From Coraliomargarita sp. (GTDB lineage: Bacteria; Verrucomicrobiota; Verrucomicrobiia; Opitutales; Coraliomargaritaceae): a stretch of DNA of 64,000 bases. The stretch spans positions 1,472,001 to 1,536,000 of the forward strand of contig OZ244160.1 in assembly GCA_965216325.1 (NCBI GenBank), written 5' to 3'. The position numbers and the translations under genes are program-made. Below the pieces are notes generated by a model. It did not search any database. It was given only the letters and a program-made list of their open reading frames with translations, and was not told the DNA's origin. This document shows, in pieces, positions 40,594 to 64,000 of the stretch (positions within the stretch are counted from its first letter, which is position 1; each line of letters opens with the position of its first letter).

Positions 40594-40674
40594 GAAGCAT
40601 ATTACAGATTTCAAATTAGAAATTACAGACATCTGGGCTCTTGCGATCTGAAACATTAAATCTGCAATCTTAAA

Positions 40675-42509: not shown

Positions 42510-42564
42510 ATACCAACCGAAGCTATGTCTCTGACCTACAAATTCAAGCCCCAAGCAAACCGTA

Positions 42565-44850: not shown

Positions 44851-44960
44851 ATTTCAGCTTCTCCGCATTTCACTCTTTCCGCATCTCAGTGTTCAGTCTT
44901 TCAGCATTTCCGCATCTCAGTGTTCAGTCTTTCAGCATTTCCGCGTCTCAGCTTTTCAGA
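44851..44960. repeat. Octamer tandem repeats (TTTCAGCA/TTTCCGCA/TCTCAG) including an exact 31-bp duplication
   Basis: tttccgcatctcagtgttcagtctttcagca occurs twice (44876-44937). Confidence 0.85.
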
Positions 44961-46335: not shown

Positions 46336-46590
46336 CTTAGCACCACTCTTCACACTTCACCTCTCCCCTTCGAGCGAAGCTCAAGCGCTCCCAGATAAAA
46401 AACACTCCGTCGACGACCACAATCTAACCTTAATATCATATAGCTTAGCGCCGACGGCGACTGCAGCGCCGCAGAATACTAAGCGCTATAAACACTCCTC
46501 CAATACAGAGTGCCACGAAAGGAGGCTTCGATAGAAACGACAAATCAGCTAAAACAAATTCACACATAGCTCCTGCATAAATAACGTTTA

Positions 46591-47457: not shown

Positions 47458-47506
47458 AAAAGAAGGCTCTCAGATGAGATTTTACAACACAACAAGCATA
47501 TCGATT

Positions 47507-48352
47507 CTATCTTACTTCGTAGCCAAAGAACTTCAACTGTCCCCGAGCAATCTGCTCAAAACATCGACCTTCATCAGCCTCAAGCTCGAGCTTCCATCGC
47601 CCTACAGTCCGTGAAGAGATTGGCTCTTTTAAACGTGAAAAGTTCTCGTTATTAGAGCGCCAGTCTGACGATAACACGCGTGGATCTAGCTGTTGCTCCT
47701 CTTTCTTACTACCAAGAAACTCCATAAGTTCACCTAACTTTAGATGAGGCTCATCTGCCAAGTCCTCGTATCGAAGATCAAAAATTCTTGGATCTTCACC
47801 ACATCGAATTCTGGCGTCGATACAGCCTTTCCAGTATCTGGCAAAACAATGAACACTTTTACGCTGCGGAACATTTACATGCGACTTACTCGAACAATAG
47901 CAGTCTCGACCGTCTCTCACCATATTTATAACTTTGGCATTAGGAAAAATGTTTAAAAGACGATCCAACTTCATGACATGTTGCGGAGTTTTTTCGACGA
48001 ACCTCCCCGTATCGAGCCCCTGATCCTTACGAATCAACTCAGCCGCCTGCGAAAAGTAAGCACCTGGACCAGTAGAATTGTCTACAAGCTTTTGCCAATC
48101 TCCATCCTTTAAATTAAAATGATTAAAATTACAAAAATTAGACAAACCAAAAAATCCAGTCTCACGGTCAATTGAGTAGTAAGCGCTATGGCAAGACAAT
48201 ATACGATGCATCAACGTGGTTCCTGATCTTGGTGCGCCAACAACAAAAAAAACTTCTAAATCCGTTGAATCGGGGCTCAACCTCCATATAATATTCTTAA
48301 AAACATTCGTTCGGTTAGAGTAGGATTTCACTATATTATACAATGCTCTCAT
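47507..48352 (-). CDS. Sulfotransferase family protein
   Basis: PAPS-binding VGAPRSGTT, EKTP, MVRDGRD, LRYEDL. Confidence 0.88.
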   Translation of the reverse strand: MRALYNIVKSYSNRTNVFKNIIWRLSPDSTDLEVFFVVGAPRSGTTLMHRILSCHSAYYSIDRETGFFGLSNFCNFNHFNLKDGDWQKLVDNSTGPGAYFSQAAELIRKDQGLDTGRFVEKTPQHVMKLDRLLNIFPNAKVINMVRDGRDCYCSSKSHVNVPQRKSVHCFARYWKGCIDARIRCGEDPRIFDLRYEDLADEPHLKLGELMEFLGSKKEEQQLDPRVLSSDWRSNNENFSRLKEPISSRTVGRWKLELEADEGRCFEQIARGQLKFFGYEVR

Positions 48353-48885
48353 AAGTCACTCAACGATTCATCTCTATATTTTATAAACTTCGCTGGATTC
48401 CCACCAACAATTTGCGCCCTCTTAACATCCTTCACCACAACTGAAGCAGCCGCAACAATGGATCGATCCTCAATAGTAGTATTGGGCCCTACAAATACAT
48501 CTGCACAGATCCAAACGCGATTGCCAATTATTATTGGCAATTTAAGGAGAGGCATCGCCGGATCCCTGTAATCATGTGAACCTGCACACAAATGCACGCG
48601 CTGAGACACAGTAGTTTTCTCCCCAATCACTATTTTCCCCAGATTGTAAACAAGTGCCCACTCTCCAATCGCAGCGTGATCTCCAACTTCTAGATTCCAA
48701 GGATAATATATGTTTGTCGTCGGATAGATGTTCACCTTCTTGCCAACCTTGGCCCCATACAGCCTCAAGATACAGGATCGCAGCTCAAAACACGGACGAG
48801 GAGTCAGACGAAAAACCATTTTACCAACGCTCCAGAGTATGCGCAGCAATACTTCCTTGAGTGAATAATTCTGCAAAACCCTCAT
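48349..48885 (-). CDS. WcaF-like O-acetyltransferase
   Basis: YYPWNLEVGD, SQRVHLCAGSHDY, VGGNPAK hexapeptide repeats; TGATG overlap with upstream gene. Confidence 0.85.
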   Translation of the reverse strand: MRVLQNYSLKEVLLRILWSVGKMVFRLTPRPCFELRSCILRLYGAKVGKKVNIYPTTNIYYPWNLEVGDHAAIGEWALVYNLGKIVIGEKTTVSQRVHLCAGSHDYRDPAMPLLKLPIIIGNRVWICADVFVGPNTTIEDRSIVAAASVVVKDVKRAQIVGGNPAKFIKYRDESLSDL

Positions 48886-50060
48886 CAGACAACAAAATCT
48901 GGTTTTGGACCTCCATGGAGAATCCAACTGTAGAATATGGACATCTGAGATGCGATCGCTGGCCACTGATATTTCTGCTCTACCAAGGCGCGACCTCTCG
49001 CACCCATAGCTGAGAGGTCTTCGTTCTTTGCTCCTATTGCTTGGTTGAGGCCAGCTTCAATCCCCTCTGGCGTGGGTTCGACCCACCACCCGCAGCCATG
49101 CGTGCTTAGCTCCTGCCATGGACAACCCGTAGTCGTCAGCACGGGCACGCCATAGCCAAGCGCTTCAGCCACCACGATCCCGAAGTTCTCTGAATAGGAT
49201 GGCAACACAAAGAGATCCGCAGCCCGATAAGCAGCTTCCTTAGTCGCACCATACAAAGGCCCAATAATTTCCACCTGATCCTGCAAACCGAGCTCTCGTA
49301 TTTTCTGCTCCACTACAGGCAGATGATTAGAATCATCATTTCCCGCAATAACCAGTCGCCAGCCCTCCGGCGCAATTCGTCCCCAAGCATCCAGCAGCAT
49401 CGGCAGGCCTTTCTTCGGATTAAGACGAGAGAGAAAAAACGCGGTCTTCTCACGACCTTCACACCTTTGAACCTTTGAACCTTCACACACAACTGACTCC
49501 GGTAGTTGCACACCATTAGGGATCACAGCGATCGGCTGCTTAAAGCCCAAGCGACGTATACTTTCAGCTTCTGACATTGCAGTCGCATGAAAGGCGGTCG
49601 CTCGCGCAAGATCACGTTTTTGATAGAGCGCCCAAGCAAGCTTCTTTTTCCACTTACCATGATTAAGTGCCCATGGCTCGAGCATTCCACGGGGAGCGAC
49701 GATAAGCGGGACACCGGCTCGCGTCGTCGCGACGGCGGTGTCGTGAGATGCTCTTAGCCATATCGCATGTTGATGAATCAAACATTCAGAACAGGTAGAC
49801 ACTAAGTGGCTAACTGTTGCATCAAAATCAGGAACTAATTTACAACACGAGGCCAACGCACGTGTTTTTTTGCAATCCACAAGGTCTATTTTTGAACTCA
49901 GAGGCACCAAAGGGTCATTGCAGTCTACCGCAGTAACAATCGATACATGATGATCTGTCTCAGCCAAAGCCGCACATAATTGACTCACCGAACGAGGCGG
50001 TCCCCCGCCACTCTCACCGAGAGAAGGAACTGAATGAATTACCTCAGAAATACCACTCAC
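48885..50060 (-). CDS. Glycosyltransferase family 4
   Basis: GGPPRSV, PRGMLEPW, LSRLNPKKG, SYSENFGIVVAEAL. Confidence 0.9.
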   Translation of the reverse strand: MSGISEVIHSVPSLGESGGGPPRSVSQLCAALAETDHHVSIVTAVDCNDPLVPLSSKIDLVDCKKTRALASCCKLVPDFDATVSHLVSTCSECLIHQHAIWLRASHDTAVATTRAGVPLIVAPRGMLEPWALNHGKWKKKLAWALYQKRDLARATAFHATAMSEAESIRRLGFKQPIAVIPNGVQLPESVVCEGSKVQRCEGREKTAFFLSRLNPKKGLPMLLDAWGRIAPEGWRLVIAGNDDSNHLPVVEQKIRELGLQDQVEIIGPLYGATKEAAYRAADLFVLPSYSENFGIVVAEALGYGVPVLTTTGCPWQELSTHGCGWWVEPTPEGIEAGLNQAIGAKNEDLSAMGARGRALVEQKYQWPAIASQMSIFYSWILHGGPKPDFVV

Positions 50061-51268
50061 AGTCTCCCTCCAGTATGATCAATGATCCATCTACGTTTAC
50101 CCGCAGATGAAATTTCGACGTCATCTGCATATCGAATGTTCAACTGGTTGAAATTCGTATTTAAAGAACAAAGCTTAGACTGAATTTCTTGCTCTAGTGT
50201 CTCCTGCTTCGCATTGGGGTGAGTAACCAGAACTAATTCCATACGGTCATCCCACTTGTGGAATTGGAAATTCAAGACTGAATCCAAACCTTTTACTGCA
50301 TGAGTTAGGGTCTCACTATGGACAGCCGTCCCATCCATAAAAGTGATAATATCATTACTGCGTCCATAAACCTCATCAAAACGAGTAATGACGCCTCCCT
50401 GAAAATCCGGGTCACTAATTCGAACCTCATCCCCAATATCGTAGCGTATAAGAGGGACCACGCGATCATACAAAGATGTGACTAACAATCTGTAGATGCT
50501 TGGGCGATCCGTCGGAATTGCCTCCACTAACAAATCATCCATAACATACATGCCCGTCTCTTGAGGATGCGTATACGCAATCGGTCCAAATTCCACCGAT
50601 CCATACTCCAAAGCAATGGGAGCGCCAAAAAAGGCCTCCAACTCTGCCGCCTCTTCATCGTTCAATCTCTCCGCAGAACACAGAACCATTTTCAAGCCAG
50701 TGCGTTGGGCTTGCTTCTGATTCTCAGAATTTGCACGAGCAAACGCAACAACTGCCGATGAATAACCACACAGCCATTTAGGTTTAAATCGAACAAAATC
50801 AGCAAATTTAGACTGCAACACACTGACTCCCAAGTCATACGCACTCAGGCGATAATAACCAACTAGCCAATCCTTCAACAAGCGCTTCCACCTCTCTAAT
50901 AGTGGGCGAAGCCCCTTTCCAATCGCATTCGAGTGACCCCAGATCAAAAAGCAACGGTCTCGATAATGGACCCCATATTTAAGTCGACCTTCAGCTTGCT
51001 TTGCTCGCGTTCGCGCAGCCCCTTCTGCCCCCACCGGAAGACGTAATGGAGTCCCAGTCGAACCTCCGGTTGAAACAACACTAACCGCCGTCATGTCTGA
51101 TCGCATCAACGAATCAATCGATCCAATAACGTCTACTTTCCGCAGTTCTGGGAGCTCACAAAAGTCTATATATGAAAGAAACTCACGCCGTTCTTGAAGC
51201 GGGCCCCAAAACGTCGTATTCCTCCGAACGTTTTTCCATACTGCGTTAAACTGCTCTAGCTGTCGCAT
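50057..51268 (-). CDS. Phenylacetate-CoA ligase/CapK-like adenylate-forming enzyme
   Basis: STGGSTGTP, EYGSVE, PLIRYDIGD, GRSND, SSAGKRR. Start uncertain (51268-51298). Confidence 0.8.
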   Translation of the reverse strand: MRQLEQFNAVWKNVRRNTTFWGPLQERREFLSYIDFCELPELRKVDVIGSIDSLMRSDMTAVSVVSTGGSTGTPLRLPVGAEGAARTRAKQAEGRLKYGVHYRDRCFLIWGHSNAIGKGLRPLLERWKRLLKDWLVGYYRLSAYDLGVSVLQSKFADFVRFKPKWLCGYSSAVVAFARANSENQKQAQRTGLKMVLCSAERLNDEEAAELEAFFGAPIALEYGSVEFGPIAYTHPQETGMYVMDDLLVEAIPTDRPSIYRLLVTSLYDRVVPLIRYDIGDEVRISDPDFQGGVITRFDEVYGRSNDIITFMDGTAVHSETLTHAVKGLDSVLNFQFHKWDDRMELVLVTHPNAKQETLEQEIQSKLCSLNTNFNQLNIRYADDVEISSAGKRRWIIDHTGGRL

Positions 51269-51290
51269 GCCAATTAGATACTTCCCAACT

Positions 51291-52112
51291 TCACTCAATG
51301 ACTGTCCCTCTGAACCTGAGAGTATCCCAAAAAGAGCGGAGATAAGAGAGATTAACCAGCCTGAAGCCACGGACCATCCAACGGCCCAACTTCGCCGCCC
51401 TCGGGTTAACTTTAGGGTAATATGACTGGGACATTTGTTTAACTTCTTGAGTCATTCTAGCTGGATACTCACCAGTCAACAGCACATTTGCAGTTTTTGC
51501 ATCCGAATGCAGGCGCAAGCCCCAGAAGTAAACAGGCATCCTTTCATAACGGTAACCTGCAGAAACAATTCGCCACCAATATTCAGTGTCCATGCAATAA
51601 TGAAAATCTTCTGCAAAATCTCCAACCTTCTGATACAAGGACTTCGAAAAAAAAGTGCTAGGACCAAATACATTTAGAAGTCCTCTCTTCACGGCAAAGG
51701 ACTCAAAACCACCTGATCGACAACATTTAGTGACTTCACCGACACTGTTGAGATAAACCGAATTTGCGGTCACCCAATCGACTTCCGCCTCTGATAGATA
51801 AGACAATGCCTTCATCATCGAACCACGAACAAGCACATCATCAGAGTTCAGCCATGTCAGATATTGCCCCTTTGCAAGCCGAAAGCCCTTGTTAAAGGCA
51901 TCACTTTGCCCTCGGTCAGGCTCTGACAAGATTTTTCTGAAAAGATGCTTATGGCGTTCCACGACCTGCATCGTTTTATCTGAACTCGCACCATCTACCA
52001 AGATAAACTCTACTCCATCGCAGGCTTCGTGCTCAATGGACTTCAAGCAAGACTCAATATATTTTTCACTATTATAGGAAGCGATAACAACAGTTAGAAT
52101 TACACGACTCAT
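51291..52112 (-). CDS. Glycosyltransferase family 2 (WcaE-like)
   Basis: [27 protein letters not shown]. Confidence 0.9.
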
Positions 52113-52717
52113 TTGGCTGTCCTATACTTAATAATTTTTGCTGTATTGCCACCAACAATGGCCCACTCCGGAACATCCCGAGTCACGACACTTCCTGCAG
52201 CAATGATCGAGTGCGACCCAATCGTAACACCAGGCATAATCATAGCTCGCATTCCAATCCAAACATCATCTCCAATAGTAATTGGCCTACTCACCGAAGC
52301 TCCTTGAATCCGCATAGGACGATTCGTATCGGAATACTCATGATTATATGAAATCAGGACCACATCAGGACCAAGCATTAAGTCATTGCCGACATGAACA
52401 TCACCAATGACCTTGAGTCCTTGAGCCAAGCCACAATTGTCGCCAAGCGAAATACGTGCTCCCGATGCAATGTCGGCTTTTCTCGCGACTCGCAATCCGC
52501 CACCAACTTGCTTTAACATCTTACGCGCAAGAAAAACGCGGAGACCTTGGGCGAACGTCCCTCCAGGGAAACTCGTAGACGGGAGATGCGTGGCAAAGGC
52601 ATAATAAATAAAAACATACAACGATTTCAACAGCCCGAACTTCGACAAGCGCGCACGCAAACGTCGCTCAGGATCATTTAATTGTTGAAACTGCTTTTTA
52701 GAATCCCCTGAGCTCAT
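52109..52717 (-). CDS. Hexapeptide-repeat O-acetyltransferase
   Basis: [27 protein letters not shown] overlap with upstream gene. Confidence 0.85.
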
Positions 52718-53961
52718 CGACCTAATACCTCTTCGTATACGGCTTTTAAACGATCTCCATAGCTCGACCAAGTGTAATTCTGCGCCAACAGCGCAGAACC
52801 AGCACGACCAAGCCTCTCTCGCAAATCTGATCGCTCGGATAATGCCTCTATTTGGTCAGCAAGGTCTTGAGGCGCATTGGGCTCGACGGCTTGATAATGA
52901 ACGCCCGCTTCACCAGGCAAACCACAAGCCTTAGTTGTAATTACCGGCAAGCCCGCGCCCAACGCCTCCATCGCAGACTGAGCACAACCCTCAGAAAGCG
53001 TCGGAAATACATATAAATCCGCCTGCTGTATCAAGCTCTTAAGTTCTTCACGAGGCAGAAAACCTACAAGGTTGATGTCTCCAGCTGTGAGCGCTTCTGG
53101 AAAATACTTCAACCCTTCACTGGCATCCCCCGCAACCGTCAAACGGAACTTCACACCACGCTCCCTCAACACACTCAAGGCCTCAAGTAAGCTACGCACT
53201 CCCTTTCTTAGCACCAGCCCCCCTGTATACAACAGCTCAACCGTAGTCCCATTGACAGCCTCCCAGGACTGTTTCGCTCCATAAAAATAATCCGGAATAC
53301 CCAAGTGCTCCACACAAATACGGTCCGCCGGATAGCCCTCATCGACAAAGGTTTGTTTAACAAAGTTAGAATTTACCAACAGCAAATCAGCAGCTTCACA
53401 GTCCTTCAGAACCAACTGCCAAAATGGATTTCGGTCGCTTAATGAATTAGCTGCCCCAACCCGTTCATACTCACTTCCGATTGCACGCTCCATATAGCTC
53501 GGATGTGCAATACTGTGATCGACGACGATCTTCATACCAGCTGCTCGGGCTGCTTGTATTGCTCCACCTTGGCCGGCACCACTCCTCACATGAAACACAT
53601 CTGCCTGCTTTAAATATGGGCGTGAGCAGAAACCAAAGAACTTCCAGCCTAAAACTTGCGCACTCTCACGCCGAAGCAGACCTGTCGTTGAGATTCGCAC
53701 CAGCACACCGGCAACCATTTCCGCAATCGGTAAGCTGTAAAAATCGCTGTTCTCCAACTGCCCCCCCATCAGCCGCCGCTCTAAACGAGTGTATAAATCC
53801 TTACGTCCGGCAAGTCGACCGACGCAATTCACCAGAAATTCGAAGCGCGCGGCAGGAATCCATCCACATAACATGCGGCGCCCGACCCCACGCTGTTTCA
53901 AGGCAAGATTCACCTCACAAAAGTGCAAGCGCCCAATTCCAACTGAAAGCAATACCTTCAT
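52714..53961 (-). CDS. Glycosyltransferase family 4
   Basis: [30 protein letters not shown]. Confidence 0.88.
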
Positions 53962-53967
53962 CTCCGT

Positions 53968-55257
53968 CTATACAGTTTCCGTTCTTTGATAGCGACTCTG
54001 CAGGGCCAATCTTTGCCGGTCCGCCATAGCAAACACCAAAGCGATACTAGACGCTTCCACCACACGAAAACCAATGGGCGAAAAAGCGTAATGCCAGAAT
54101 GCATTAAACACAATCACCACTAGAACTCCAAGCAGCGCGGGATAGGAGAGCAGACCAGTTTGAATGAATCGGACATAGAAATATAACAAATAAAGCCAGA
54201 ACAACGCACCGAGAATACCATGCGCAACCCATGCTTCCAGAATCTTTGAATGCGTCGGGATGTAACCAAAACCTCCCTTAGAAACATAGATATCCCGCAT
54301 ATGATAATCTCCCAAAACTTCCAAGGCGTGGATCCAGTATCCCTCATAGTCTAAAGCAAACGAACCATGGCCTAATAGCGGCTTATCCCAAACTGCGATC
54401 ACCCCGCCTACCGCTTCAGGGCGCCCTCTCAATAGGAGTCCCATCGGGCTTTGTGACTGTCGCTCATATTTGACCCGAGCCTTCTCACCTAACATGCCAC
54501 TAGAGGCGGTAAAAGTATACGTAAAATATAATCCCACACAGCCAACGAATCCAATACATGCTGCCAACAACATAGTAGAGAGCTTTAGCCTGAATGTCTT
54601 TGTCTTCCCGTGCTTCAGAAAACCGGTAAAAAACCACAGAATTAAGCTCACCATTATCGCAATCGCTCCAGCAGATCGAGACCCAAGCGCCAAATTCAAA
54701 AAACCTCCCAGAGAAAGCGCACAGCATACCAGACGTGGATAGCGCTCATAGAACCATGCATTAAGTATCGCCAAAAGCGCCACAAATATGTAATTATAGG
54801 TTTCCCCCCATCCATGTCCACGCACATCCCCTGCCACTTCGTCAACAACCAGACTGGACATCTTAAATACCGTAAAGCCTAAGATCACCGAAAAGAAGGC
54901 TCCGATCACGTAGTAACGCCATACCAGCGGGTTGCGCTGAAAAATGAAATATAAGGAATAGATGCACAGCCCTAAAATAATCAGGCGAACAATGCCTTTC
55001 AGCGCAAATTTCGTATAGGTATCATTGATAAAAAAATCAGAGATGCAGGCTGCAAAAATCCACAAGCCCAAAAGCACAAAGACCGTCTTCAACTGGCTAT
55101 TCCTCAGGCTATGCCCAGTAAAAAAGAAATAAGGCGCCATTGCCGATAAAAACACCTCTGAAAATGACAAGTGCGTAATGCCAATATTGACCTGCGTCAC
55201 CGCACCTAAGCCACAGACAAAGGCCAGCAAATTATGGTGAAGGGGTGAAATCCGCAT
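53968..55257 (-). CDS. Wzy polysaccharide polymerase / O-antigen ligase-like protein
   Basis: About 11 TM segments; GSRS, PLLGHG, THSKILE. Confidence 0.75.
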   Translation of the reverse strand: MRISPLHHNLLAFVCGLGAVTQVNIGITHLSFSEVFLSAMAPYFFFTGHSLRNSQLKTVFVLLGLWIFAACISDFFINDTYTKFALKGIVRLIILGLCIYSLYFIFQRNPLVWRYYVIGAFFSVILGFTVFKMSSLVVDEVAGDVRGHGWGETYNYIFVALLAILNAWFYERYPRLVCCALSLGGFLNLALGSRSAGAIAIMVSLILWFFTGFLKHGKTKTFRLKLSTMLLAACIGFVGCVGLYFTYTFTASSGMLGEKARVKYERQSQSPMGLLLRGRPEAVGGVIAVWDKPLLGHGSFALDYEGYWIHALEVLGDYHMRDIYVSKGGFGYIPTHSKILEAWVAHGILGALFWLYLLYFYVRFIQTGLLSYPALLGVLVVIVFNAFWHYAFSPIGFRVVEASSIALVFAMADRQRLALQSRYQRTETV

Positions 55258-55278
55258 AATGTTATGAGAGCGCCAAAA

Positions 55279-56700
55279 TTAACTGCGTCGGCCACGCAAA
55301 GCTAACAGTTGAGATTGAAACAACTGCACACTGTCAAAACGCATTATCCACGCGTAACAACTATAAACCATCGCTCCAACAAGAATCTCTAAAAGCAACG
55401 GCCCCCGCATCCATGCAACAATGCCATACATCAGCGCTGCGGCAGCAAAAGGTCGCGAGCTATCGCGAAAAAATGCGCGGTGCCCATAGCCAACCACACG
55501 TTTAGTCACTATCCGAGAAAAGACTGCGCCAATAAGCAACGAAGCCACCTGCCCCAATACAATCGCCGCCAAGCCGTAGTGATACGTAAGAAAGAGCACG
55601 ATAAATTGCACCAGCTTCGTAAACAATCCGACTTTGAAGAGCAATCCAGTTTGCCCCTTTGCCACAATTGCCTGCAAGTTCAAAATACCCACCACGTATA
55701 CAAACCCACCCACACACAGAGCACTCAGCAATGGCCCCACATCTGTCCACTGCGATCCCAACAGAAAGGGCACAAGTGCTTCGGAAGTGACTGCCACCCC
55801 CACCAAAATCGGAGTCATGACCTCTAACATCAAACGCATTGCCTTACGTAATGCGCTCAAGAATGCCGCAGGGTCATCCTGCAGACGTGAAAGCACCGGT
55901 AAGCCCACGCGCGCGACAACCCCTGAAATCGATAAAACAGACACCTGTTGCAGTGCCATCGCTCGATTATAATAGCCCAACTGTGCAGGCGAATACACCG
56001 ATCCGACTACAAAGACATAAATCTGTCTTCCCAGTTGGTCCAAAAACTGAAGGCCAATCAGCCCCACCGAGAAGCGCAGAAAGGAACGCATGACATTCGG
56101 GTCAAACGTAAGCGCAGGCCGCCACCGAGTGGCGATCCATGCAAATATCAATCGCGCGGCTGCCAACGCAACATGATGCCAGACCAAGGCCCAGACTCCA
56201 TAACCGGACAGCGCTAGGCTAACCCCAACAGCACCACCAAACAATAAAGCAGGCAAATTAATCAAAAAAACCTGCCGAAAAGCCATCTCCCGATAGAGAC
56301 GAGACAGCTGTATGTTATTGCTTGCGCCCAAAATCAGCACCAAGCCAGTCACACGAATCACACTCGCCAGCTCAGGCATTGCAAACCAGGCCGCCAATGT
56401 TGGCGAAACTCCACAGAGCACTAGATACGAACAGAACGCCGCTCCTGCGCTCATCCAAAAAGCAGTTGAGACATCACGCTCATTTAAGCCCTGCTTTTGA
56501 ATAACCGCATCCACTAAGCCAGCTCCCACTAGCACATTGGTAAATTGATTGAGAGATAGCGCAACCGCGACCAATCCAAAATCAGCTGGCAGCAAGAGGC
56601 GAGCGAGCACAAGCTGAACGATAAACTGCAGTCCCTGTCGTCCAAAATTATCTAGGCCATTCCAAATACCGCCCGACAATGCTTGCTTCCCTACACTCAA
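55279..56700 (-). CDS. wzx: Wzx flippase (WzxC-like)
   Basis: LARLLLPADFG, GYGVWALV, LGYYNRA, PVLSRLQDD. Confidence 0.88.
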   Translation of the reverse strand: MSVGKQALSGGIWNGLDNFGRQGLQFIVQLVLARLLLPADFGLVAVALSLNQFTNVLVGAGLVDAVIQKQGLNERDVSTAFWMSAGAAFCSYLVLCGVSPTLAAWFAMPELASVIRVTGLVLILGASNNIQLSRLYREMAFRQVFLINLPALLFGGAVGVSLALSGYGVWALVWHHVALAAARLIFAWIATRWRPALTFDPNVMRSFLRFSVGLIGLQFLDQLGRQIYVFVVGSVYSPAQLGYYNRAMALQQVSVLSISGVVARVGLPVLSRLQDDPAAFLSALRKAMRLMLEVMTPILVGVAVTSEALVPFLLGSQWTDVGPLLSALCVGGFVYVVGILNLQAIVAKGQTGLLFKVGLFTKLVQFIVLFLTYHYGLAAIVLGQVASLLIGAVFSRIVTKRVVGYGHRAFFRDSSRPFAAAALMYGIVAWMRGPLLLEILVGAMVYSCYAWIMRFDSVQLFQSQLLALRGRRS

Positions 56701-56709
56701 GATAACTGA

Positions 56710-57699
56710 TCAATTAGTCAGTGGAAACACCTTACACACCGAGCGCTTCGTAAATTGCTCCATTAGACCAGTGGCACGCTGTTGCCAACTAGGGCACGTA
56801 TAGTCTATAGAAAAATCAAAATCTGGACAATGTTCCAAAATACCAGCTTTAAAGGCACTCATATCAACACCAACCCCAGCCTTTTTCGCTTTTTGGCATA
56901 CCATCCAACACATGCGCCCTGCTGCATATAAAGCCTCCCTACATACAGCAGCATCCAAAGGTACCCCCGTATTCTTAGCATCCTCGAAGCTAAGTAAAAC
57001 AGGTAAAAAACTACTACCGTAAACATGCTCCCATTCCGCATGCTTGAATGCAATTTTACTCCAATTACCTCCATGCTGCCTATAGCAAGCAAGCGCTTCG
57101 CCATAGTAATAGAGCCCACCATGCATAGACATTCGCAGATTCAAGTACCAATCGCCGGAGCGGAGTGCATCAGATTGATACAAACTGCCAATTTTTCTAA
57201 TATCACTCATCCGATACAGCAACCCCGCTGCACACAGAAAATTCCGCCCCAACAACTTGTAGAAAAAGTCTAATTGAGATAGCTCATAGGATTTAGACCT
57301 CATTCGTCCCCATACACGATCATTTTCATCAACATATAGACAACGCGCCGATGCCATACTAAGCGTTTCGTCCCGATCAAGCACTTCGACCATCACCCTC
57401 AAAAAATCAGGTGCACAGAAATCGTCACCATCTTGTCGGTAGAAATAATCTCCATTCAATGCATGCAACTCTCGATCAATCGCTATCGTACCCCTACCAA
57501 GATTCGTTTCATTCTGTATGACTCGCACACGTGGATCATGCTTCGTCAATTCAAGAGCATGCTCGTAACTTCCATCTGTAGAGCAATCATCAATTATCAG
57601 CCATTCAAAATCGCCCATACTTTGCTTGAGCATATAGGCAACATTAGTCTCCAGAAACGGACAATGATTATAAAGTGTTGTTACTATAGAAACTTTCAC
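56710..57699 (-). CDS. Glycosyltransferase family 2
   Basis: VSIVTTLYN, IIDDCSTDGS, QDGDD; adjacent to the unusual-sugar genes. Confidence 0.85.
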   Translation of the reverse strand: MKVSIVTTLYNHCPFLETNVAYMLKQSMGDFEWLIIDDCSTDGSYEHALELTKHDPRVRVIQNETNLGRGTIAIDRELHALNGDYFYRQDGDDFCAPDFLRVMVEVLDRDETLSMASARCLYVDENDRVWGRMRSKSYELSQLDFFYKLLGRNFLCAAGLLYRMSDIRKIGSLYQSDALRSGDWYLNLRMSMHGGLYYYGEALACYRQHGGNWSKIAFKHAEWEHVYGSSFLPVLLSFEDAKNTGVPLDAAVCREALYAAGRMCWMVCQKAKKAGVGVDMSAFKAGILEHCPDFDFSIDYTCPSWQQRATGLMEQFTKRSVCKVFPLTN

Positions 57700-57758
57700 A
57701 GCGACAAATCATACTATAAATAGACGAAGGTGGTAAACCTAAATGAAGGTCTAGAAAC

Positions 57759-58421
57759 CTAACTGTGAACACGAAGAACTTGAGCTGGATTACCAACAAC
57801 CACACCTCCATCGGGAACACCTTTCAAGACCACAGAGCCCATGCCTACTACAGAATATTTTCCGATGGAGACTTTCTCGCGTATAGATGCATTCGTCCCA
57901 ACATGTGTCCCGTATCCGATGCGCACATTCGCCCCAATACATGCATTGTTCGCAATCGACACATAGTCCTCCAAGACAGTGTCATGGCCGAGAAAACTGT
58001 TCGGAAGCAAAATACAATTACTTCCAAGAGTGGTATCCGCACTCAATTGCGCCAATGGACAAATCAAAGACCCTGTACCTATTTTGCAATAGCCTTCAGG
58101 AATCACTGCTGTGGGATCGATGATGCTCAACAAGCGATCTTCCGGAATGCCCAACTGCTCCAACCTAGATGTTGTTTCACGCTCACGAGTCATTCCAATA
58201 TAGGCAATGAATACGTGTGCGTCATGCTTTTTGATCAACTCATGGACATCCTCCGATTTACCAATAACCGGATACTTCCTGAACCTGCCTATCTCAGTTC
58301 CAAAAGGAACAACATCATTAAGGAACCCCAGCATTCGATATCCTCCAATGCGATCTAAAATGGATGATGCGATCATCCCAATCCCACTACCACCCAGCAT
58401 AATTACATTTTTCATAATCAA
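57759..58421 (-). CDS. NeuD/PglD/VioB-like sugar N- or O-acyltransferase
   Basis: N-terminal Rossmann-like LGGSGIG...GFLND; hexapeptide repeats with GHD; VVGNPA. Confidence 0.85.
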   Translation of the reverse strand: MIMKNVIMLGGSGIGMIASSILDRIGGYRMLGFLNDVVPFGTEIGRFRKYPVIGKSEDVHELIKKHDAHVFIAYIGMTRERETTSRLEQLGIPEDRLLSIIDPTAVIPEGYCKIGTGSLICPLAQLSADTTLGSNCILLPNSFLGHDTVLEDYVSIANNACIGANVRIGYGTHVGTNASIREKVSIGKYSVVGMGSVVLKGVPDGGVVVGNPAQVLRVHS

Positions 58422-58612
58422 TTTTAGTTTTCGGCGCTGCCTTTATCTGCCATCATCAAACGCTACTTCAACATCGCTATAATCTTTATTCTCTGCCCCG
58501 CCGTCATATCAAACCAAGCTACGGCATCCAACATATTGCGTAGGCATCGACGACATAGGTCCGTACCTTGTCCAATTTGCACAACTTCACGCAAGGATTC
58601 ATAGAACGAGAA

Positions 58613-59545
58613 TCAACCTCCATGTTTTCTTTCCGCAAGTGCGATACGCTCAGCCTTAGCCAACACCTTATTCGCACGCTTCAGCATCGGCGGCCCCACC
58701 AACTTCCCATCCAACAAAGTCGTCCCCTGCCCCTTTTCGCTACTTTCACGAATGGCTTCAATAATACGCTTGGCCTCTTCAACCTCCTCACTTGAGGGCG
58801 AGAAGACTTCATTGGCGACATCAATCTGGGTCGGATGCAGCAGCAACTGTCCTGAAAACCCTAATTCACGGGCCTGTTCAACCTCCCTTCGAAAGCCTTC
58901 CGCATTACGAATATCCAGATAAGGCGTATCCAAAACATCGATATGCGCCGAGCGAGCTGCGATCACAATCAACGAGCGCGGCACTATCAAACTGGTCCCG
59001 TGCTCCTTATGCAAACCATCCAGATCGGTGAGATAATCTTCCCCGCCAAAAGCCAACCCGATCATACGCTCAGAAGCGGTGGCAATCTGATGCGCACGTA
59101 GAATCGCCGAACCCATTTCAATAAGGGGCAGCATTTTAAACTTACCAATTTCAAAGCCAAGATCGTGCTCGTACTGGCTCAACAGCTTATCAAAGTAAAT
59201 GATATCGTTTTCATCCCTTACCTTGGTAAACATGAAACCATCCGTGTTGGCATGCAGGGTGGCCTCCAAATCCTTTGTGAGCATTCCCGAATCGATATCA
59301 TTCACACGAATAAAGGTCTGCTGTGGGAATTTATTGGCATCGAGATACTCCCGGACAAACGTCCGCGCATCTGCCTTGCAGGGGGGCGGCACCGAGTCCT
59401 CCAAATCCAGGAGAATGGCATCGGACCGGAAGGAAACAGCCTTATCCAGGAATTTCCTCGTATATCCGGGAACGAACATCGCACTGCGCAAGCTGCCCCG
59501 GGGCGTAGACTGATTAGATGATTCCATAGTGCTTCGCATATTCAA
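58613..59545 (-). CDS. CitE/HpcH-family CoA-ester lyase (copy 1)
   Basis: RSAMFVPG, LDLEDSV, IRVN, LIE, FGGEDY, HPTQI, DGKLVGPP. Confidence 0.88.
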   Translation of the reverse strand: MNMRSTMESSNQSTPRGSLRSAMFVPGYTRKFLDKAVSFRSDAILLDLEDSVPPPCKADARTFVREYLDANKFPQQTFIRVNDIDSGMLTKDLEATLHANTDGFMFTKVRDENDIIYFDKLLSQYEHDLGFEIGKFKMLPLIEMGSAILRAHQIATASERMIGLAFGGEDYLTDLDGLHKEHGTSLIVPRSLIVIAARSAHIDVLDTPYLDIRNAEGFRREVEQARELGFSGQLLLHPTQIDVANEVFSPSSEEVEEAKRIIEAIRESSEKGQGTTLLDGKLVGPPMLKRANKVLAKAERIALAERKHGG

Positions 59546-60350
59546 AAATGTGTTTAAGTTTCTTTAGTTTTGGTGGTGATAAAATTTCTCCACCTTCGGA
59601 AATGTAACCGGTGTCTCCATCGTTATAGGCAAAGAAGGTTTCGCAACGCTGAGCTTGTGCGATTAGCTCTTCGTCTGGTGAGAACACCTTATTGATACAA
59701 ACAATCTGTTGAGGATGGATCGAGAACTTCCCTGTCAGGCCTGTCGACTTGGCCCATACAGTCTCATCGTGCAAACGCACTCCCCCGGTTAAGTCGGTTG
59801 ATATGGTATCGATGGCCTCAACCCCAGAAGCCATCGCCTGCAAGGCAATGTCGGCTTGAACACGCCGGACGAGCCCCTCCAGCTCAGTGGTCTGATAGAT
59901 ACACTCGGATAGAAAATCCTCCAAGCCGAGGCCGATCCCCTTCAATACATTCAATCCGAGGATCGAATTCAACTCCACCAAACCACTGGGACTTTCTATA
60001 AGTCCGATGACGTTCCTTCCAGTTTCAATGCCGTAGTCATCGTATTGCCTCTGCAAATGCGTCCCGGATTCAATTTTTGGCAACACCACGCCAATGTCTG
60101 GAAACCGCCCCAGGAACTCGCGCTCATAGTCCGCAATCCAGCCATCACTGCCATTGAGACGCACGTAAAATCGCGACACTTCCTTCTCCTCATCCAGCCA
60201 ACGAGTGAGAAATGCAAGGGCAACCCGCTTCTCTGCATTCGGGACGGCATCTTCCAAGTCGAAGATATAACGGTCTGCCCCCAGGGCAGCGGAGCGGTCA
60301 AACAACTTCGGCTTATTGGCCGGGATAAAGTGGTATGAGCGACTATGCAT
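59514..60350 (-). CDS. CitE/HpcH-family CoA-ester lyase (copy 2, divergent)
   Basis: SYHFIPA, FDLEDAV, LPKIE, LIESP, GLEDF, IHPQQI. Confidence 0.8.
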   Translation of the reverse strand: MHSRSYHFIPANKPKLFDRSAALGADRYIFDLEDAVPNAEKRVALAFLTRWLDEEKEVSRFYVRLNGSDGWIADYEREFLGRFPDIGVVLPKIESGTHLQRQYDDYGIETGRNVIGLIESPSGLVELNSILGLNVLKGIGLGLEDFLSECIYQTTELEGLVRRVQADIALQAMASGVEAIDTISTDLTGGVRLHDETVWAKSTGLTGKFSIHPQQIVCINKVFSPDEELIAQAQRCETFFAYNDGDTGYISEGGEILSPPKLKKLKHIFEYAKHYGII

Positions 60351-60813
60351 TCCGCTTCGGAATCAAGACTCTCCGACGAAATGTCAGAATTTTCTCATCC
60401 CGCTGATTGTAAGCGCGCGTCTCGACATAAACAATACCACGGTCATTCCGGCTTTTAGATTCACGCATCTCAATCACTTCGGTCTCGGCACGAATCGTAT
60501 CTCCGATGTGAACAGGGGCATCATGATTTACGCCTTCATAGGCCAGATTCGCAACCGCTCGTCCGCTAATGTCGGCAACGGTCAAACCAACCACAAGAGA
60601 GAAAACCAACGTCCCAACAACGAGAACCTGACCGTGTTGCGCCTTGCTGGCGTAATCCTGGTCCAAGTGAACCGGATGATGGTTCATGGTAAGTAGTGAA
60701 AAAAGATTGTTATCACTCTCTGTAATTGTCTTGCGGACACTATGCTGGTACACTGCTCCTGCAGCAAAATCTTCAAGGCAACGACCAAATGATATGGCTA
60801 CATTCTTATCCAT
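60343..60813 (-). CDS. MaoC-family (R)-enoyl-CoA hydratase/dehydratase
   Basis: GRCLEDF, TITESDNNLFSLLTMNHHPVH (D-x9-H hydratase-type motif), PVHIGDT. Confidence 0.88.
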   Translation of the reverse strand: MDKNVAISFGRCLEDFAAGAVYQHSVRKTITESDNNLFSLLTMNHHPVHLDQDYASKAQHGQVLVVGTLVFSLVVGLTVADISGRAVANLAYEGVNHDAPVHIGDTIRAETEVIEMRESKSRNDRGIVYVETRAYNQRDEKILTFRRRVLIPKRNA

Positions 60814-60839
60814 ATTAGTTATATTATTTATTCTATTAA

Positions 60840-61925
60840 TTAACTTGCAGAGACGACGTCACCAATACTCTCAACATCCTTAGCGCTTAAGTCCAGATAC
60901 AACGGCAAGCACAATATGCGATTAGAGACATCCTCAGAGATTGGCATTGTTGAAGCGTCAACGATGCGCTCCAAAGTATTGACCGAGGGGTAGAAGTAAC
61001 GACGTGGGTATACCTGAATTGCATTCAAAGCCGCTTCCGCCCGAAGTAAGTGTTCTTCCGAATCAAAAAGAACCGGGAAGTAGGAATAATTTGGTTCGCC
61101 CAACTTAAGGTTTTGAAAACCCAGCCCCTGACACTCTAAAAGCGCATTACGATAGCGAAAATACTTCTCCTTTCGATCCCGAAGCACTTCGTCACCATAC
61201 TTCAAGTTAGCAATACCGAGCGCAGCGTGCACTTCGGTCATCTTACCATTAAAGCCATCCTCAACAATCTCTTTAGCCTCATCATGACCGAAGAAGCGGA
61301 TACGCTGAAGCTTTTTATTCAACTCAATGTCGGTTGTAATACATCCCCCACCTTCAGCGGTGTTCAAAAGTTTCGTTGCATGCAGGCTGGTTGCTGAGAT
61401 ATCGCCGAACTCCAACAGACTGCGGTCTTTATATTTAGAACCGACCGCATGAGCCGCATCGTAGATGACCTTCAGATTGTGCTTCCGCGCAATTCCTTCG
61501 ATTGCGTCCACATCACAAGGGTTACCAAATACGTGGACCGGCATAATCGCCACTGTTTTGTCGGTAATTGCGGCTTCGATCTTAGCAGGATCGATATTAA
61601 ATGTATCTGCCTCAATATCGCAGAAAACCGGTGTGCAACCCTCCCACTTGATCGCACTTAATGTCGCAACCCAAGTAAATGGCGTAGTTATGATCTCCCC
61701 TCTCAACTCAAGCGCCTTGATTGCCATCTGAATAGCAATCGTTCCGTTGCTAACAGCGGTGAAGTGTGTAAGCCCGAGCCACTGACACATCTCGCGTTCA
61801 AAGCGCTGTACCATCGGTCCGTTGTGAGTCAAAATTCCGCTAGCCCAGACTTGCTCGAGCAATGCAGCATATTCTTCCAGCGGAGCCAGTGAGGGCTGGG
61901 TCACATAAATGGGCAGATCATTCAT
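60840..61925 (-). CDS. DegT/DnrJ/EryC1 sugar aminotransferase (VioA-like)
   Basis: SGILTHNGP, SNGT, YDAAHA, PLP lysine in SLHATK, RRYFYPS. Confidence 0.9.
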   Translation of the reverse strand: MNDLPIYVTQPSLAPLEEYAALLEQVWASGILTHNGPMVQRFEREMCQWLGLTHFTAVSNGTIAIQMAIKALELRGEIITTPFTWVATLSAIKWEGCTPVFCDIEADTFNIDPAKIEAAITDKTVAIMPVHVFGNPCDVDAIEGIARKHNLKVIYDAAHAVGSKYKDRSLLEFGDISATSLHATKLLNTAEGGGCITTDIELNKKLQRIRFFGHDEAKEIVEDGFNGKMTEVHAALGIANLKYGDEVLRDRKEKYFRYRNALLECQGLGFQNLKLGEPNYSYFPVLFDSEEHLLRAEAALNAIQVYPRRYFYPSVNTLERIVDASTMPISEDVSNRILCLPLYLDLSAKDVESIGDVVSAS

Positions 61926-61927
61926 AA

Positions 61928-62908
61928 TTAATCGCGAGCTTTGATGAAAACTTCCTCAATCAGACGTGCTTGATTTATATTTTGTAGGTATTCCAATTCC
62001 CGGTCAGTGGAATCTCCGACAAGACCATGAAAATGTCGAAGCATATTCTCGAAATGATTGGCCGGCTCAACAGAGATCACTTCCCTTTCCATACCACACT
62101 CAATAACCAATTCGGCCGAATAGTTGGGAGGTGCGGTGAACAAGCGGTTGGTCGTCAGTCGCCCCTTGCTGCCCCAGAGTTCCAAGCTGCATTGATACTG
62201 CTGATCAAAACCGAATGCGACCTCGGAAAAGAGAGGACCATTCTGTTGTTTCAAGTAGCCCCCCCCCCAGACATCAACCTCGCAATCGTCACCTTTCACC
62301 AGATTAGCCGCAGCCACAGTCAGATCTGAACCGAGAATGATCTGTGATACTTTCAGTGTATAGGCCCCGGCATCCAAGAGAGCACCACCGCCCAAGGCGT
62401 GATCATAGCGAATGTTATCGGCATCGGAAAAAGGAGGAAATCCGAAGGAACTGCGTACACAGCGCAACTGACCAATACGACCAGATTCCAGAATATCCTG
62501 AATGGCCTTTAGCTGTGGGTGGCAGCGAAACTGAAAGTTTTCAACCAAGGCTAGGTTCTTGGAGGCCGCGAGTTGATTCAGGCGGGTAACATCTGTCACA
62601 GTGCATGCGAGGGATTTCTCCACCAACACATGCAAGCCACGATTCAAGGCTTTTTCAATCCACTCCGCGTGCAAACCATTCGGCAAGGGAATATAAACCG
62701 CGTCGAGATCAGCGAACTCAAGTAGTGTCTCGTATCCCACAAATGGAGTGACCCCGAACTGCTCCGCGAATGGCAACGCAGTGGATTCACTTCGACTGGC
62801 CACACCGATCAGCTTGAACAAGTCGGGCAACTGTTGGATAGCTGGAATCACAGAGCGCCGGGCAATCTGCGCACAACCAATAACACCAATATTTAGCGGT
62901 TTCATCAT
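61928..62908 (-). CDS. Gfo/Idh/MocA oxidoreductase, probable NDP-hexose 3-ketoreductase
   Basis: GCAQIARRSVIPA, YIPLPNGLHAEW, HVLVEKS, GGGALLDAGAY; directly follows the 2,3-dehydratase. Confidence 0.8.
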   Translation of the reverse strand: MMKPLNIGVIGCAQIARRSVIPAIQQLPDLFKLIGVASRSESTALPFAEQFGVTPFVGYETLLEFADLDAVYIPLPNGLHAEWIEKALNRGLHVLVEKSLACTVTDVTRLNQLAASKNLALVENFQFRCHPQLKAIQDILESGRIGQLRCVRSSFGFPPFSDADNIRYDHALGGGALLDAGAYTLKVSQIILGSDLTVAAANLVKGDDCEVDVWGGGYLKQQNGPLFSEVAFGFDQQYQCSLELWGSKGRLTTNRLFTAPPNYSAELVIECGMEREVISVEPANHFENMLRHFHGLVGDSTDRELEYLQNINQARLIEEVFIKARD

Positions 62909-62918
62909 AAACTAGGAA

Positions 62919-64000
62919 TTAGACGAAGCGAATGGCAGCAATGAGGCTACGAGCTTGAATGTTAAATACGTTACTAGCGCGTAATAATCCATGGATCTGA
63001 TGGAGCGTCATCCAAACAAAGTTGTCGGGCAGCTCGTCACTGAAGTCATCTTCTGCGAGAACAATACAGTTACGATTATCATCACGGTAGAAACGGCCAC
63101 CCTCTTCCGCCTGAATCGCATCATAGACCAATTGATGCGGCTTTGCATTTAAGACATAGGATTCAAATGGATTATGGTCAATTGGCGCACCATCCGTGCC
63201 GCGACCTTCCAGCGATTGGACCGTCGGAGCGAATTCGAACGCATCATGATTTCCACACTCCATCTTCAATTGTACCGCGAAATGAAGAACTCCTTCGATC
63301 TGTTTGCAGATGAAGGCGCATAAGCCGGCTTGTGCGGGTTCGACCATCGGCTGCGTCCAAGACTGCACTTCCCGCCCTTCAATATTCACATCGACCGCAA
63401 TGACCCGAAAATAGCAACCCGCATCGTGAGCAATTACGGAATCACCAAAAGTCCAGTGCTCCAATTTATCTAACGATACTTTTCGAAGAGATACATCCTC
63501 CGTGCTCTTCAGGTGAGTGAGCCTCGAAATGATTTGCTCGTAGCTGTTAACGGCATGATCCGCTTGTTGGCAAGAAAGGAGGAAACGTTGGTAAATCGGC
63601 TCCGAAGAAGATTGGGCGATCTCCAAAGGGTCTTGCACTGTCCCGAAATGAATGCCTGAAAGCACCGTGCGAGAATCCATATTGATGAGATTGTCATGCC
63701 CCATCAGCACTTTCAACTGTCCGAGGGTGAGCCACTTAAAATTCTCATGAACTTCGATGGGTGCATCAACCCTGATGATGATGTTGCGATTACGCTTTCC
63801 CAGAAATCTAGAGCCTTGTTCCGACTGGAGTTGATCCAGCAATATTTGCTCAGGCTTGGCCTGTTGAAAATACTCCAGATAGAGCGGCGCGCGCCCCTTG
63901 TGTATGCGACTGTAATTACTACGAGTTGCCTGTAAGGTCGGCGAAAGCTGGAAGATATTTGAATTGCCCGGCTCGATCTTGGCCTGCGTCAGGAAATGGA
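62919..64000 (-). CDS. NDP-hexose 2,3-dehydratase (EvaA/OleV-like), partial (runs off right edge)
   Basis: Frame open to the window end: HFLTQAKIEPGN...QLSPTLQATRSNY...LQSEQGSRF...KRNRN; second repeat PTVQ...AEEGGRFY, NIQARSL. Confidence 0.88.
   Translation of the reverse strand, partial: HFLTQAKIEPGNSNIFQLSPTLQATRSNYSRIHKGRAPLYLEYFQQAKPEQILLDQLQSEQGSRFLGKRNRNIIIRVDAPIEVHENFKWLTLGQLKVLMGHDNLINMDSRTVLSGIHFGTVQDPLEIAQSSSEPIYQRFLLSCQQADHAVNSYEQIISRLTHLKSTEDVSLRKVSLDKLEHWTFGDSVIAHDAGCYFRVIAVDVNIEGREVQSWTQPMVEPAQAGLCAFICKQIEGVLHFAVQLKMECGNHDAFEFAPTVQSLEGRGTDGAPIDHNPFESYVLNAKPHQLVYDAIQAEEGGRFYRDDNRNCIVLAEDDFSDELPDNFVWMTLHQIHGLLRASNVFNIQARSLIAAIRFV

Follow-up and report, generated by a model that had tools for sequence, protein, structure and literature searches.

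Which sugar does a tightly packed operon build at the end of a 64,000-nucleotide stretch of a Coraliomargarita genome, and what is attached to that sugar? The stretch, called here the window, covers G000:C1:1472001-1536000 of the analysed genome, G000; coordinates prefixed L002 refer to G000 DNA beyond the window end. The explanation that we favour, with moderate confidence, is a Wzx/Wzy operon producing a 4-amino-2,4,6-trideoxyhexose that would be N-acylated by a dicarboxylic group derived from three adjacent genes: a MaoC hydratase gene and two genes of the HpcH/CitE family, CitE-B (59514-60350) and CitE-A (58613-59545), together termed the triad. The list of open reading frames (ORFs) of the window and their Pfam and NCBIfam scans, from which all families are assigned, give the following order on the minus strand: 2,3-dehydratase, Gfo/Idh/MocA reductase, DegT aminotransferase, MaoC, CitE-B, CitE-A, acyltransferase, GT2 glycosyltransferase, Wzx and a Wzy-like protein. 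An earlier, sequence-only reading of this DNA had described the same gene set and the same tight order. Two of its details are corrected here: wzx and wzy fall outside the segment 56710..64000 in which it placed them, and genes for RmlA and an RmlB-like 4,6-dehydratase lie directly upstream, past the window end. The intergenic spacing ranges from -32 to +59 nucleotides, with the sole exception of a 191-nucleotide gap between CitE-A and the acyltransferase gene; MaoC and CitE-B overlap by 8 nucleotides, CitE-B and CitE-A by up to 32. A promoter and terminator scan of 53500-64000 gave no signal (13 sites of each kind, versus 14.0 and 11.9 expected).

The composite nature of the locus emerges from its relatives, drawn from two samples of 401 genomes each, a phylum sample and an order sample, both counting G000. 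Genomes G306 and G036 belong to the same family as G000, G541 to the same order and G719 to the same genus. The dehydratase, reductase and DegT aminotransferase of G000 recur in G036 with 69%, 68% and 81% identity, and neither MaoC, CitE-A nor the acyltransferase was found there. The G306 locus, in which dehydratase and reductase were not found, possesses a DegT protein of 42% identity, followed by MaoC (83%), CitE-B (50%), CitE-A (86%) and the acyltransferase (83%). Dehydratase and reductase were not found in G541 and G044 either; identities to G000 in these two genomes are 30% and 28% for DegT, 68% and 74% for MaoC, 81% and 81% for CitE-A, and 29% and 26% for the acyltransferase. DegT travels with the dehydratase and the reductase, while the triad travels on its own, and the acyltransferase is swapped in G541 and G044, where the amine is placed at C3 instead of C4; the G541 DegT protein matches the C3 aminotransferase QdtB (8e-124). 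By homology of gene content, families and modular co-travel, the locus reads as a mosaic of a deoxygenation/amination module and an acyl module. Since the triad is found with N-acyltransferases and three amino-sugar cores, it behaves as an acyl-donor unit feeding interchangeable transferases, in keeping with the acyl-donor module that the sequence-only reading had claimed. That reading had also proposed a neighbourhood search for the whole combination: the sugar trio (G036) and the triad (G306, G541 and G044) both recur, but in separate genomes.

The full gene complements of these relatives place the modules in diverse settings. G306 assembles WecA-like, SDR, RmlB, RmlA, DegT, MaoC, CitE-B, CitE-A, acyltransferase, Wzx, GT56 (WecF-like) and Wzy genes. 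The G541 locus contains RmlA, an FdtA-like fragment, MaoC, CitE-B, CitE-A, a PduO-type/DUF1289 gene, a PglD-type acyltransferase, DegT, a sulfotransferase and Wzx; the apparent fusion of its RmlA and FdtA genes was discarded, since it stems from a scaffold gap of 100 N (L090:2411-2510). G044 has RmlA, MaoC, CitE-B (split across two contig ends), CitE-A, acyltransferase, DegT and Wzx. In G036, RmlA, dehydratase, reductase and DegT are accompanied by GNAT, class I/II aminotransferase, D-2-hydroxyacid dehydrogenase, ATP-grasp and Wzx genes. To note, the GNAT, class I/II aminotransferase, dehydrogenase and PylC-like ATP-grasp genes of G036 (L114:7686-11450) form an alternative decoration module, possibly installing an amide-linked amino-acyl or hydroxy-acyl group.

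A clade-specific DNA pattern search of metagenomes retrieved 17 loci. The triad arrangement is shown by eight of these (L095, L096, L098, L099, L100, L106, L107 and L108), several of them interrupted by contig ends. The other nine (L093, L094, L097, L101-L105 and L109) combine MaoC with one CitE, 33-38% identical to CitE-A, and were set aside as a different system. The triad is accompanied by a PglD-type acyltransferase and a formyltransferase in L096, by Wzx and GT2 in L106, by a PduO-type gene and then an acyltransferase in L107, and by Wzx, Wzy and glycosyltransferases in L108; RmlB is directly upstream of it in L100, and MeaB with a glyoxalase-fold methylmalonyl-CoA-epimerase-like gene in L099 (L099:189-1711). 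Overall, glycan operons enclose the triad in G000, G306, G541, G044, L096, L106, L107 and L108, and a PglD/NeuD-type acyltransferase gene is located at most two genes downstream of CitE-A in 6 of the 7 loci where this region is visible (G000, G306, G541, G044, L096, L100 and L107). CitE-B orthologues occur in 3/401 genomes of the phylum sample and 3/401 of the order sample, G000 being included in each count, and none was found in the same-genus genome G719. This rarity, together with the gap in G719, is typical of genes for variable surface antigens. A scan of genome contigs with the CitE-B alignment, whose back-translated patterns corresponded to generic CitE motifs, returned no orthologue among its 80 retained loci, all at 25-33% identity.

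What sugar would the first module deliver? The NDP-hexose 2,3-dehydratase gene (62919..64000, minus strand, as are all genes of the operon described below; PF03559 1.4e-112, two domains) is cut by the window end. The full protein has 496 amino acids and reaches L002:1410, so that the window holds its C-terminal 359 residues and the first 137 codons lie beyond. It harbors tandem Hexose_dehydrat (Nudix-fold) PF03559 domains (255 and 222 bits), and EvaA (4j7g, 1.6e-94) is its sole sequence match in the PDB. Glutamates E139 and E190 of EvaA are proposed as likely catalytic in the accessible part of PMC8987622; assuming that the chain index equals the numbering of that paper, the segments 'akiEpgn' and 'lqsEqgs' of the G000 protein align with EvaA 'akmEpgn' (index 139) and 'lqaEqgs' (index 190). 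The predicted protein possesses both the two domains and the two glutamates expected of an EvaA-type 2,3-dehydratase. Within the order sample, G000 and G036 are the two genomes (2/401) in which PF03559 was found.

The following gene (61928..62908; PF01408 and PF22725) encodes a putative Gfo/Idh/MocA sugar 3-ketoreductase of the KijD10 type. Its best PDB match over residues 3-326 is 3rbv, annotated 'Sugar 3-ketoreductase' (6e-62), which we take to be KijD10, and the next match is at 5e-28. Its predicted function is supported by this full-length similarity to a solved enzyme, well above that to other Gfo/Idh proteins. The DegT-family pyridoxal-phosphate-dependent aminotransferase (60840..61925; PF01041 1.6e-89) is predicted to act at C4. 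Its best NCBIfam model is TIGR04427 (PLP_DesI), with 260 bits, below the cut-off of 650, and its best PDB match is 2po3 (7e-56), presumably DesI, followed by perosamine synthases, all being C4 enzymes. It likely works as a DesI/VioA-type enzyme while falling outside the TIGR04427 equivalog.

These proteins suggest a short route. RmlA and RmlB would provide dTDP-4-keto-6-deoxyglucose, from which the EvaA-type dehydratase would take off the 2-hydroxyl to yield a 3,4-diketo-2,6-dideoxy sugar; the KijD10-type reductase would act on the new 3-keto group, giving a 4-keto-2,6-dideoxy sugar; and the DesI-type enzyme would aminate C4, leading to dTDP-4-amino-2,4,6-trideoxyhexose, the configuration of which is not predictable. 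We infer both the order of these steps and the C4 position. A different order is known: in the EvaA/EvaB route, the 3,4-diketo product of the 2,3-dehydratase is aminated at C3. Were the G000 enzymes to act likewise, with Gfo/Idh reduction at C4 thereafter, the product would be a 3-amino-2,3,6-trideoxyhexose, an outcome that we consider quite improbable. A 3-keto group is indeed described on 2,3-dehydratase products in the accessible part of PMC8987622, and the regiochemistry of DegT enzymes is not safely readable from sequence, the DesI cut-off being missed here. However, the similarity of the reductase to the 3-ketoreductase 3rbv spans the full length, the C4 enzymes DesI and perosamine synthases are the best matches of the aminotransferase, and the true C3 enzyme of G541 is just 30% identical to the latter. 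Furthermore, the acyltransferase, whose best match is VioB, shares 83% identity with its G306 counterpart, encoded in a locus where a 4-keto group is the sole one available.

The 4-amino sugar would next be acylated by a left-handed β-helix N-acyltransferase (57759..58421). It scores 163.1 bits against TIGR03570 (cut-off 160.8), displays PglD_N (7e-07) and Hexapep (1.3e-14) domains, and finds VioB (7txp, 1.8e-30) as its best PDB match, features that assign it to the predicted NeuD/PglB/VioB N-acyltransferase subfamily. Two earlier claims thereby gain ground: the pairing of an EvaA-type dehydratase with a 3-ketoreductase agrees with the matches to EvaA and 3rbv, and that of a VioA-type with a VioB-type enzyme agrees with the C4-type aminotransferase matches and with VioB.

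The donor of the acyl group would come from the triad. The single-hotdog MaoC hydratase (60343..60813; PF01575 5e-21, PF19315 1e-19) is Ich/Mch-like. Its closest curated model is RipB/Ich NF038241, at 130.7 bits for a cut-off of 340, hence outside the equivalog; its PDB match is 8hgn, a β-methylmalyl-CoA dehydratase (1.8e-27). The protein resembles the N-terminal half of mesaconyl/β-methylmalyl-CoA hydratases, and its motif 'MNHHP.H' is conserved in 10/10 cassette copies.

CitE-A (HpcH_HpaI 9e-47) is a putative CitE-like CoA-ester lyase. It reaches 234 bits with citE TIGR01588 (cut-off 443) and 148.6 bits with RipC/Ccl (cut-off 375), and its PDB matches are the malyl-CoA/β-methylmalyl-CoA lyase 5ugr (7e-38) and CLYBL 5vxc (1e-34). 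Residues R80, E143 and D170 are invariant in the CitE-A alignment (A2) and the lid reads 'LLDGKLVGPP', so that the protein appears to carry the full catalytic set of the CitE-like superfamily: the arginine, the metal ligands and the lid aspartate. It is 78-86% identical in G306, G541, G044, L106 and L107. Its relatives form 372 clusters at E<=1e-60; about 300 of the relatives, at 59-69% identity, bear names from Bacteroidota, Balneolota and other phyla, and the general MaoC/CitE cassette appears to be widespread.

CitE-B (HpcH_HpaI 8e-18) is a divergent paralogue. RipC/Ccl is its closest curated model, with 98 bits, below the cut-off of 375. A search of 5.8 billion proteins yielded about 50 clusters at 30-61% identity, forming a clade separate from generic CitE, to which only the names Lentimonas and an Opitutaceae metagenome-assembled genome are attached, in line with the placement of G000 in Verrucomicrobiota. 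The clade is small and fast-evolving: CitE-B identity across loci is 39-52%, versus 68-86% for its neighbours. Among 30 sequences, R64, E119, E144 and D145 are invariant, while lid position 253, a glycine in G000, is occupied by G in 9, A in 7, D in 6, N in 3, Q in 2, E in 2 and R in 1. The accessible part of PMC3832036 reports that the arginine and the lid aspartate are conserved throughout the CitE superfamily, that a glutamate replaces the lid aspartate in the malyl-CoA thioesterase clade, and that the lid of one subunit shuts the active site of its neighbour. CitE-B therefore probably has the fold and the binding site of the family, not its canonical catalysis. The expression 'two CitE-like lyases' of the sequence-only reading fits CitE-A, with its full catalytic set, but may be wrong for CitE-B.

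Why keep two paralogues? The lid residues of CitE-A/CitE-B in the eight two-CitE loci are D/G, D/A, D/G, D/Q, D/H, D/D, N/D and N/D: each of the eight retains at least one lid aspartate, and the two loci with an asparagine in CitE-A have the aspartate in CitE-B. This retention suggests a shared hetero-oligomeric site. CitE-A and CitE-B might thus form one lyase in which the lid aspartate is needed from a single paralogue; otherwise, CitE-B might be a thioesterase or a proofreading enzyme like Mcl2. Such a division of labour, possible rather than likely, would be a sub-mechanism compatible with the favoured explanation. The overlap of the three genes by 8-32 nucleotides, the closure of the lid over the neighbouring site described in the accessible part of PMC3832036, and the evolution of CitE-B, much faster than that of its neighbours, are all consistent with it. 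Conversely, the eight loci are few and mutually related, and the single-CitE cassette of G099 (ATP-grasp, MaoC, CitE and acyltransferase, with DegT and RmlB nearby) has a lid asparagine and no partner, indicating that the lid aspartate is dispensable in this cassette family and keeping the heteromer hypothetical. Prediction of the CitE-A/CitE-B complex gave a score of 0.05, for a mark of 0.32.

Which acyl group would these enzymes deliver? CitE-A and CitE-B are the only HpcH/CitE genes of the G000 genome (99.98% complete), which argues that they do not serve central metabolism. The translationally coupled triad would make a non-acetyl dicarboxylic acyl-CoA: acetyl-CoA and pyruvate would be joined into citramalyl-CoA, and dehydration would convert it into itaconyl- or mesaconyl-CoA. 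Isocitrate lyase was not found in the genome, which favours pyruvate over glyoxylate as co-substrate and makes glyoxylate-derived acyl groups (malyl, β-methylmalyl) less likely, other glyoxylate sources not having been searched. As no cassette dispenses with the hydratase, the donor probably arises after the hydratase step. As a best guess, we infer a C5 dicarboxylic group of citramalyl origin (citramalyl, itaconyl or mesaconyl), although the choice of any specific acyl group is tentative and doubtful. The 'hydroxy-dicarboxylic acyl group' of the sequence-only reading survives as one option, but the unsaturated itaconyl and mesaconyl groups are no worse a fit, given that hydratase and lyases are always kept. 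The VioB-type acyltransferase would move the group onto the C4 amine, resulting in a 4-acylamido product, and GT2, Wzx and Wzy would incorporate the sugar into the polymer.

It has to be considered whether the triad is linked to the glycan at all. It might serve the ordinary metabolism of CoA esters, central or catabolic (breakdown of itaconate, ethylmalonyl-CoA-like steps) and stand in a glycan locus by chance: its closest curated families are Ich/Ccl and Mch/Mcl, and in L099 it follows MeaB and the epimerase-like gene. However, Pfam and NCBIfam scans reveal no CoA transferase or other pathway partner in the locus, the genome has no CitE gene besides these two, CitE-B is found in 3/401 genomes per sample and is missing from G719, and the triad resides within the glycan operons of eight loci. 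This coincidence is thus highly improbable.

A closer competitor would have the acyltransferase merely N-acetylate the sugar, the triad supplying instead an O-acyl or ketal substituent or a free hydroxy-acid, or clearing a toxic CoA ester. The best structural match of the acyltransferase, VioB, is indeed a member of an acetyltransferase family, further acyltransferases and a PaaK-like ligase are encoded in the locus, and CitE-like enzymes can be thioesterases, according to the accessible parts of PMC3832036 and of a preprint. Yet the triad adjoins a PglD/NeuD-type N-acyltransferase in 6/7 visible loci, and it is retained (CitE-A, 81%) when the acyltransferase (26-29%) and the amine position change together; simple N-acetylation is consequently unlikely.

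Several observations nevertheless weigh against the favoured explanation. The equivalog cut-offs are missed by RipB (131/340), RipC (149 and 98/375), citE (234/443) and DesI (260/650). CitE-B is devoid of the lid aspartate said to be superfamily-conserved in the accessible part of PMC3832036, and the CitE-A-type copies of L096, L100 and G099 have an asparagine at this position, so that something other than a plain aldol reaction may take place. In the 16 kb of L100, neither an acyltransferase gene nor DegT was detected, and the triad of L099 is preceded by MeaB and an epimerase-like gene instead of sugar genes. Finally, N-itaconyl, N-mesaconyl and N-citramalyl sugars are not among the N-acyl groups given in the accessible part of PMC3210612.

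Genes related to vitamin B12 accompany some of the cassettes. A PduO-type cobalamin adenosyltransferase fused to DUF1289 is encoded between CitE-A and the acyltransferase in G541 (L090:4876-5592) and in L107 (L107:561-1253); no B12-accessory gene was found in the G000 cassette. A two-subunit B12-dependent methylmalonyl-CoA mutase is encoded elsewhere in the G000 genome, and the accessible part of a preprint reports inhibition of this type of mutase by malyl-CoA and itaconyl-CoA. Speculatively, the PduO-type, MeaB and epimerase-like genes could ensure self-protection, or they could be the sign of a methylmalonyl-CoA-derived substrate. Taken to its end, this line of thought would make the cassette a de novo route to an electrophilic or acidic C5 acyl donor (itaconyl-, mesaconyl- or citramalyl-CoA, from acetyl-CoA or a malonyl-type ester and pyruvate), with a CitE-A/CitE-B heteromer of novel lid chemistry, an N-itaconyl- or N-citramalyl-2-deoxy-viosamine-type surface sugar, and B12-repair genes in some cassettes; the full combination is rather unlikely.

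The operon continues into a polysaccharide locus. The GT2 glycosyltransferase (56710..57699; PF00535 3e-24) is, from its position alone, a candidate transferase for the modified sugar. The Wzx flippase (55279..56700; PF13440 2e-79, 267 bits) has about 12 hydrophobic segments and scores 196 bits with the MOP flippase model NF007773, below its cut-off of 273. The next protein (53968..55257), with about nine hydrophobic segments, is a Wzy-like polymerase or a membrane protein of the O-antigen-ligase family; its Wzy_C score of 23.6 bits is below the cut-off of 31.7, and this assignment is the weak point of the locus classification. The remaining glycan genes (44956..53961, minus strand) encode GT4, a hexapeptide O-acetyltransferase-like protein, GT2, a PaaK-like AMP-binding protein, GT4, a WcaF-like acetyltransferase, a sulfotransferase, GT2 and a further glycosyltransferase. 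Beyond the window, RmlA (L002:1367-2239) is directly upstream of the dehydratase and is followed by the RmlB-like 4,6-dehydratase (401 amino acids, L002:2308-3513), then by HEPN/nucleotidyltransferase pairs, a second 4,6-dehydratase-like SDR and a WecA/MraY-family transferase (L002:13998-15533). A predicted flippase, a multi-span protein, at least five glycosyltransferases and a WecA/MraY-family gene are all present, as they should be in a Wzx/Wzy locus.

Other features of this region deserve mention. The PaaK-like/CapK-like AMP-binding protein (50057-51370) stands amid glycosyltransferases (AMP-binding 1.2e-05; DVU1553-family ligase 1.2e-12). Sulfotransferase genes in the glycan loci of G000 (47507-48352), G541 (L090:7354-8274) and G036 (L114:17874-18800) suggest that the predicted surface polysaccharides are sulfated. 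Three HEPN/HepT-like and MNT-type nucleotidyltransferase pairs are scattered among the sugar and transferase genes (window 41711-42554, L002:5927-6560 and L002:9222-9930). The glycan locus is flanked by a DUF4838 protein of 843 amino acids (38125-40656), 47% identical to the copy at the same end of the G306 locus (L088:3053-5497). Small genes annotated as '23S rRNA-intervening sequence protein' (PF05635) occur within sugar operons, between RmlB and RmlA in G306 (L087:7886-8245) and between MaoC and CitE-B in L107 (L107:3276-3659).

All the enzyme families of the locus are known. Three features appear specific to it: a second CitE paralogue, CitE-B; the joining of the cassette to an antibiotic-type 2-deoxygenation pair within a Wzx/Wzy locus; and the shuffling of modules. 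Sugars lacking the 2-hydroxyl are deemed a hallmark of antibiotic glycosides, and G000 and G036 wire the same predicted chemistry into Wzx/Wzy surface polysaccharides. The triad would explain at the gene level the origin of acidic N-acyl groups other than acetyl, for which no donor pathway was found in the open-access literature. The same sugar core is met with either of two acyl modules, and the same acyl module with three different sugar cores, a mix-and-match arrangement that would serve glycoengineering as a toolbox and allow glycan decorations to be predicted from genomes by a simple rule. The CitE-B clade lacking the lid aspartate, along with the B12-accessory genes, points to enzymology outside the studied CitE family.

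The sequence-only reading did not recognise the pathway as characterised, and no paper describing it was found among open-access full texts: none dealt with MaoC and CitE together with sugar aminotransferases or flippases, and none tied 2,3-dehydratases to O-antigen or capsule synthesis. PMC6124807, examined as such a link, concerns a GDP-sugar 3-dehydratase instead. Forosamine-type routes combine a 2,3-dehydratase, a 3-ketoreductase of the KijD10 or SpnN type and a 4-aminotransferase. The deoxysugar routes of actinomycete antibiotics start from dTDP-4-keto-6-deoxyglucose and employ the three enzyme families of G000, in the order that is predicted for the latter. Unlike in antibiotic clusters, the G000 genes belong to a Verrucomicrobiota Wzx/Wzy operon without 3-dehydrase, methyltransferase or aglycone genes, and the amine is predicted to be N-acylated. 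The 2,3-dehydratases EvaA, SpnO and TylX3 named in the accessible part of PMC8987622, a 2022 review, are from antibiotic pathways only.

The triad resembles Ich/Ccl (RipB/RipC), CLYBL and the Mch/Mcl1/Mcl2 enzymes of the ethylmalonyl-CoA pathway and the 3-hydroxypropionate bi-cycle, which share a MaoC hydratase and a CitE-like lyase or thioesterase with C4/C5 dicarboxylic CoA esters as substrates. It differs from Ich/Ccl and Mch/Mcl by its location in sugar operons, the lack of a CoA transferase, the CitE-B without lid aspartate and a presumed biosynthetic direction. Among marine O-antigens, the accessible part of PMC3210612 describes 4-malyl on GlcNAc3NA in Pseudoalteromonas, and 3-hydroxybutyryl and 3-hydroxy-3-methylbutyryl on Qui4N in Shewanella; dicarboxylic and short hydroxyacyl amides do occur, therefore, on surface amino sugars, Qui4N included. 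The sugars described there keep a 2-substituent, and that part of the source gives no 2-deoxy 4-amino sugar and no acyl-donor genes. A further parallel is the VioA/VioB O-antigen route to dTDP-4-acetamido-4,6-dideoxyglucose, which likewise has a C4 aminotransferase followed by a β-helix N-acyltransferase, with Wzx adjoining. The G306 locus corresponds to this route with the triad added, whereas G000 departs from it by two extra, predicted 2-deoxygenation steps and by a triad inserted between aminotransferase and acyltransferase.

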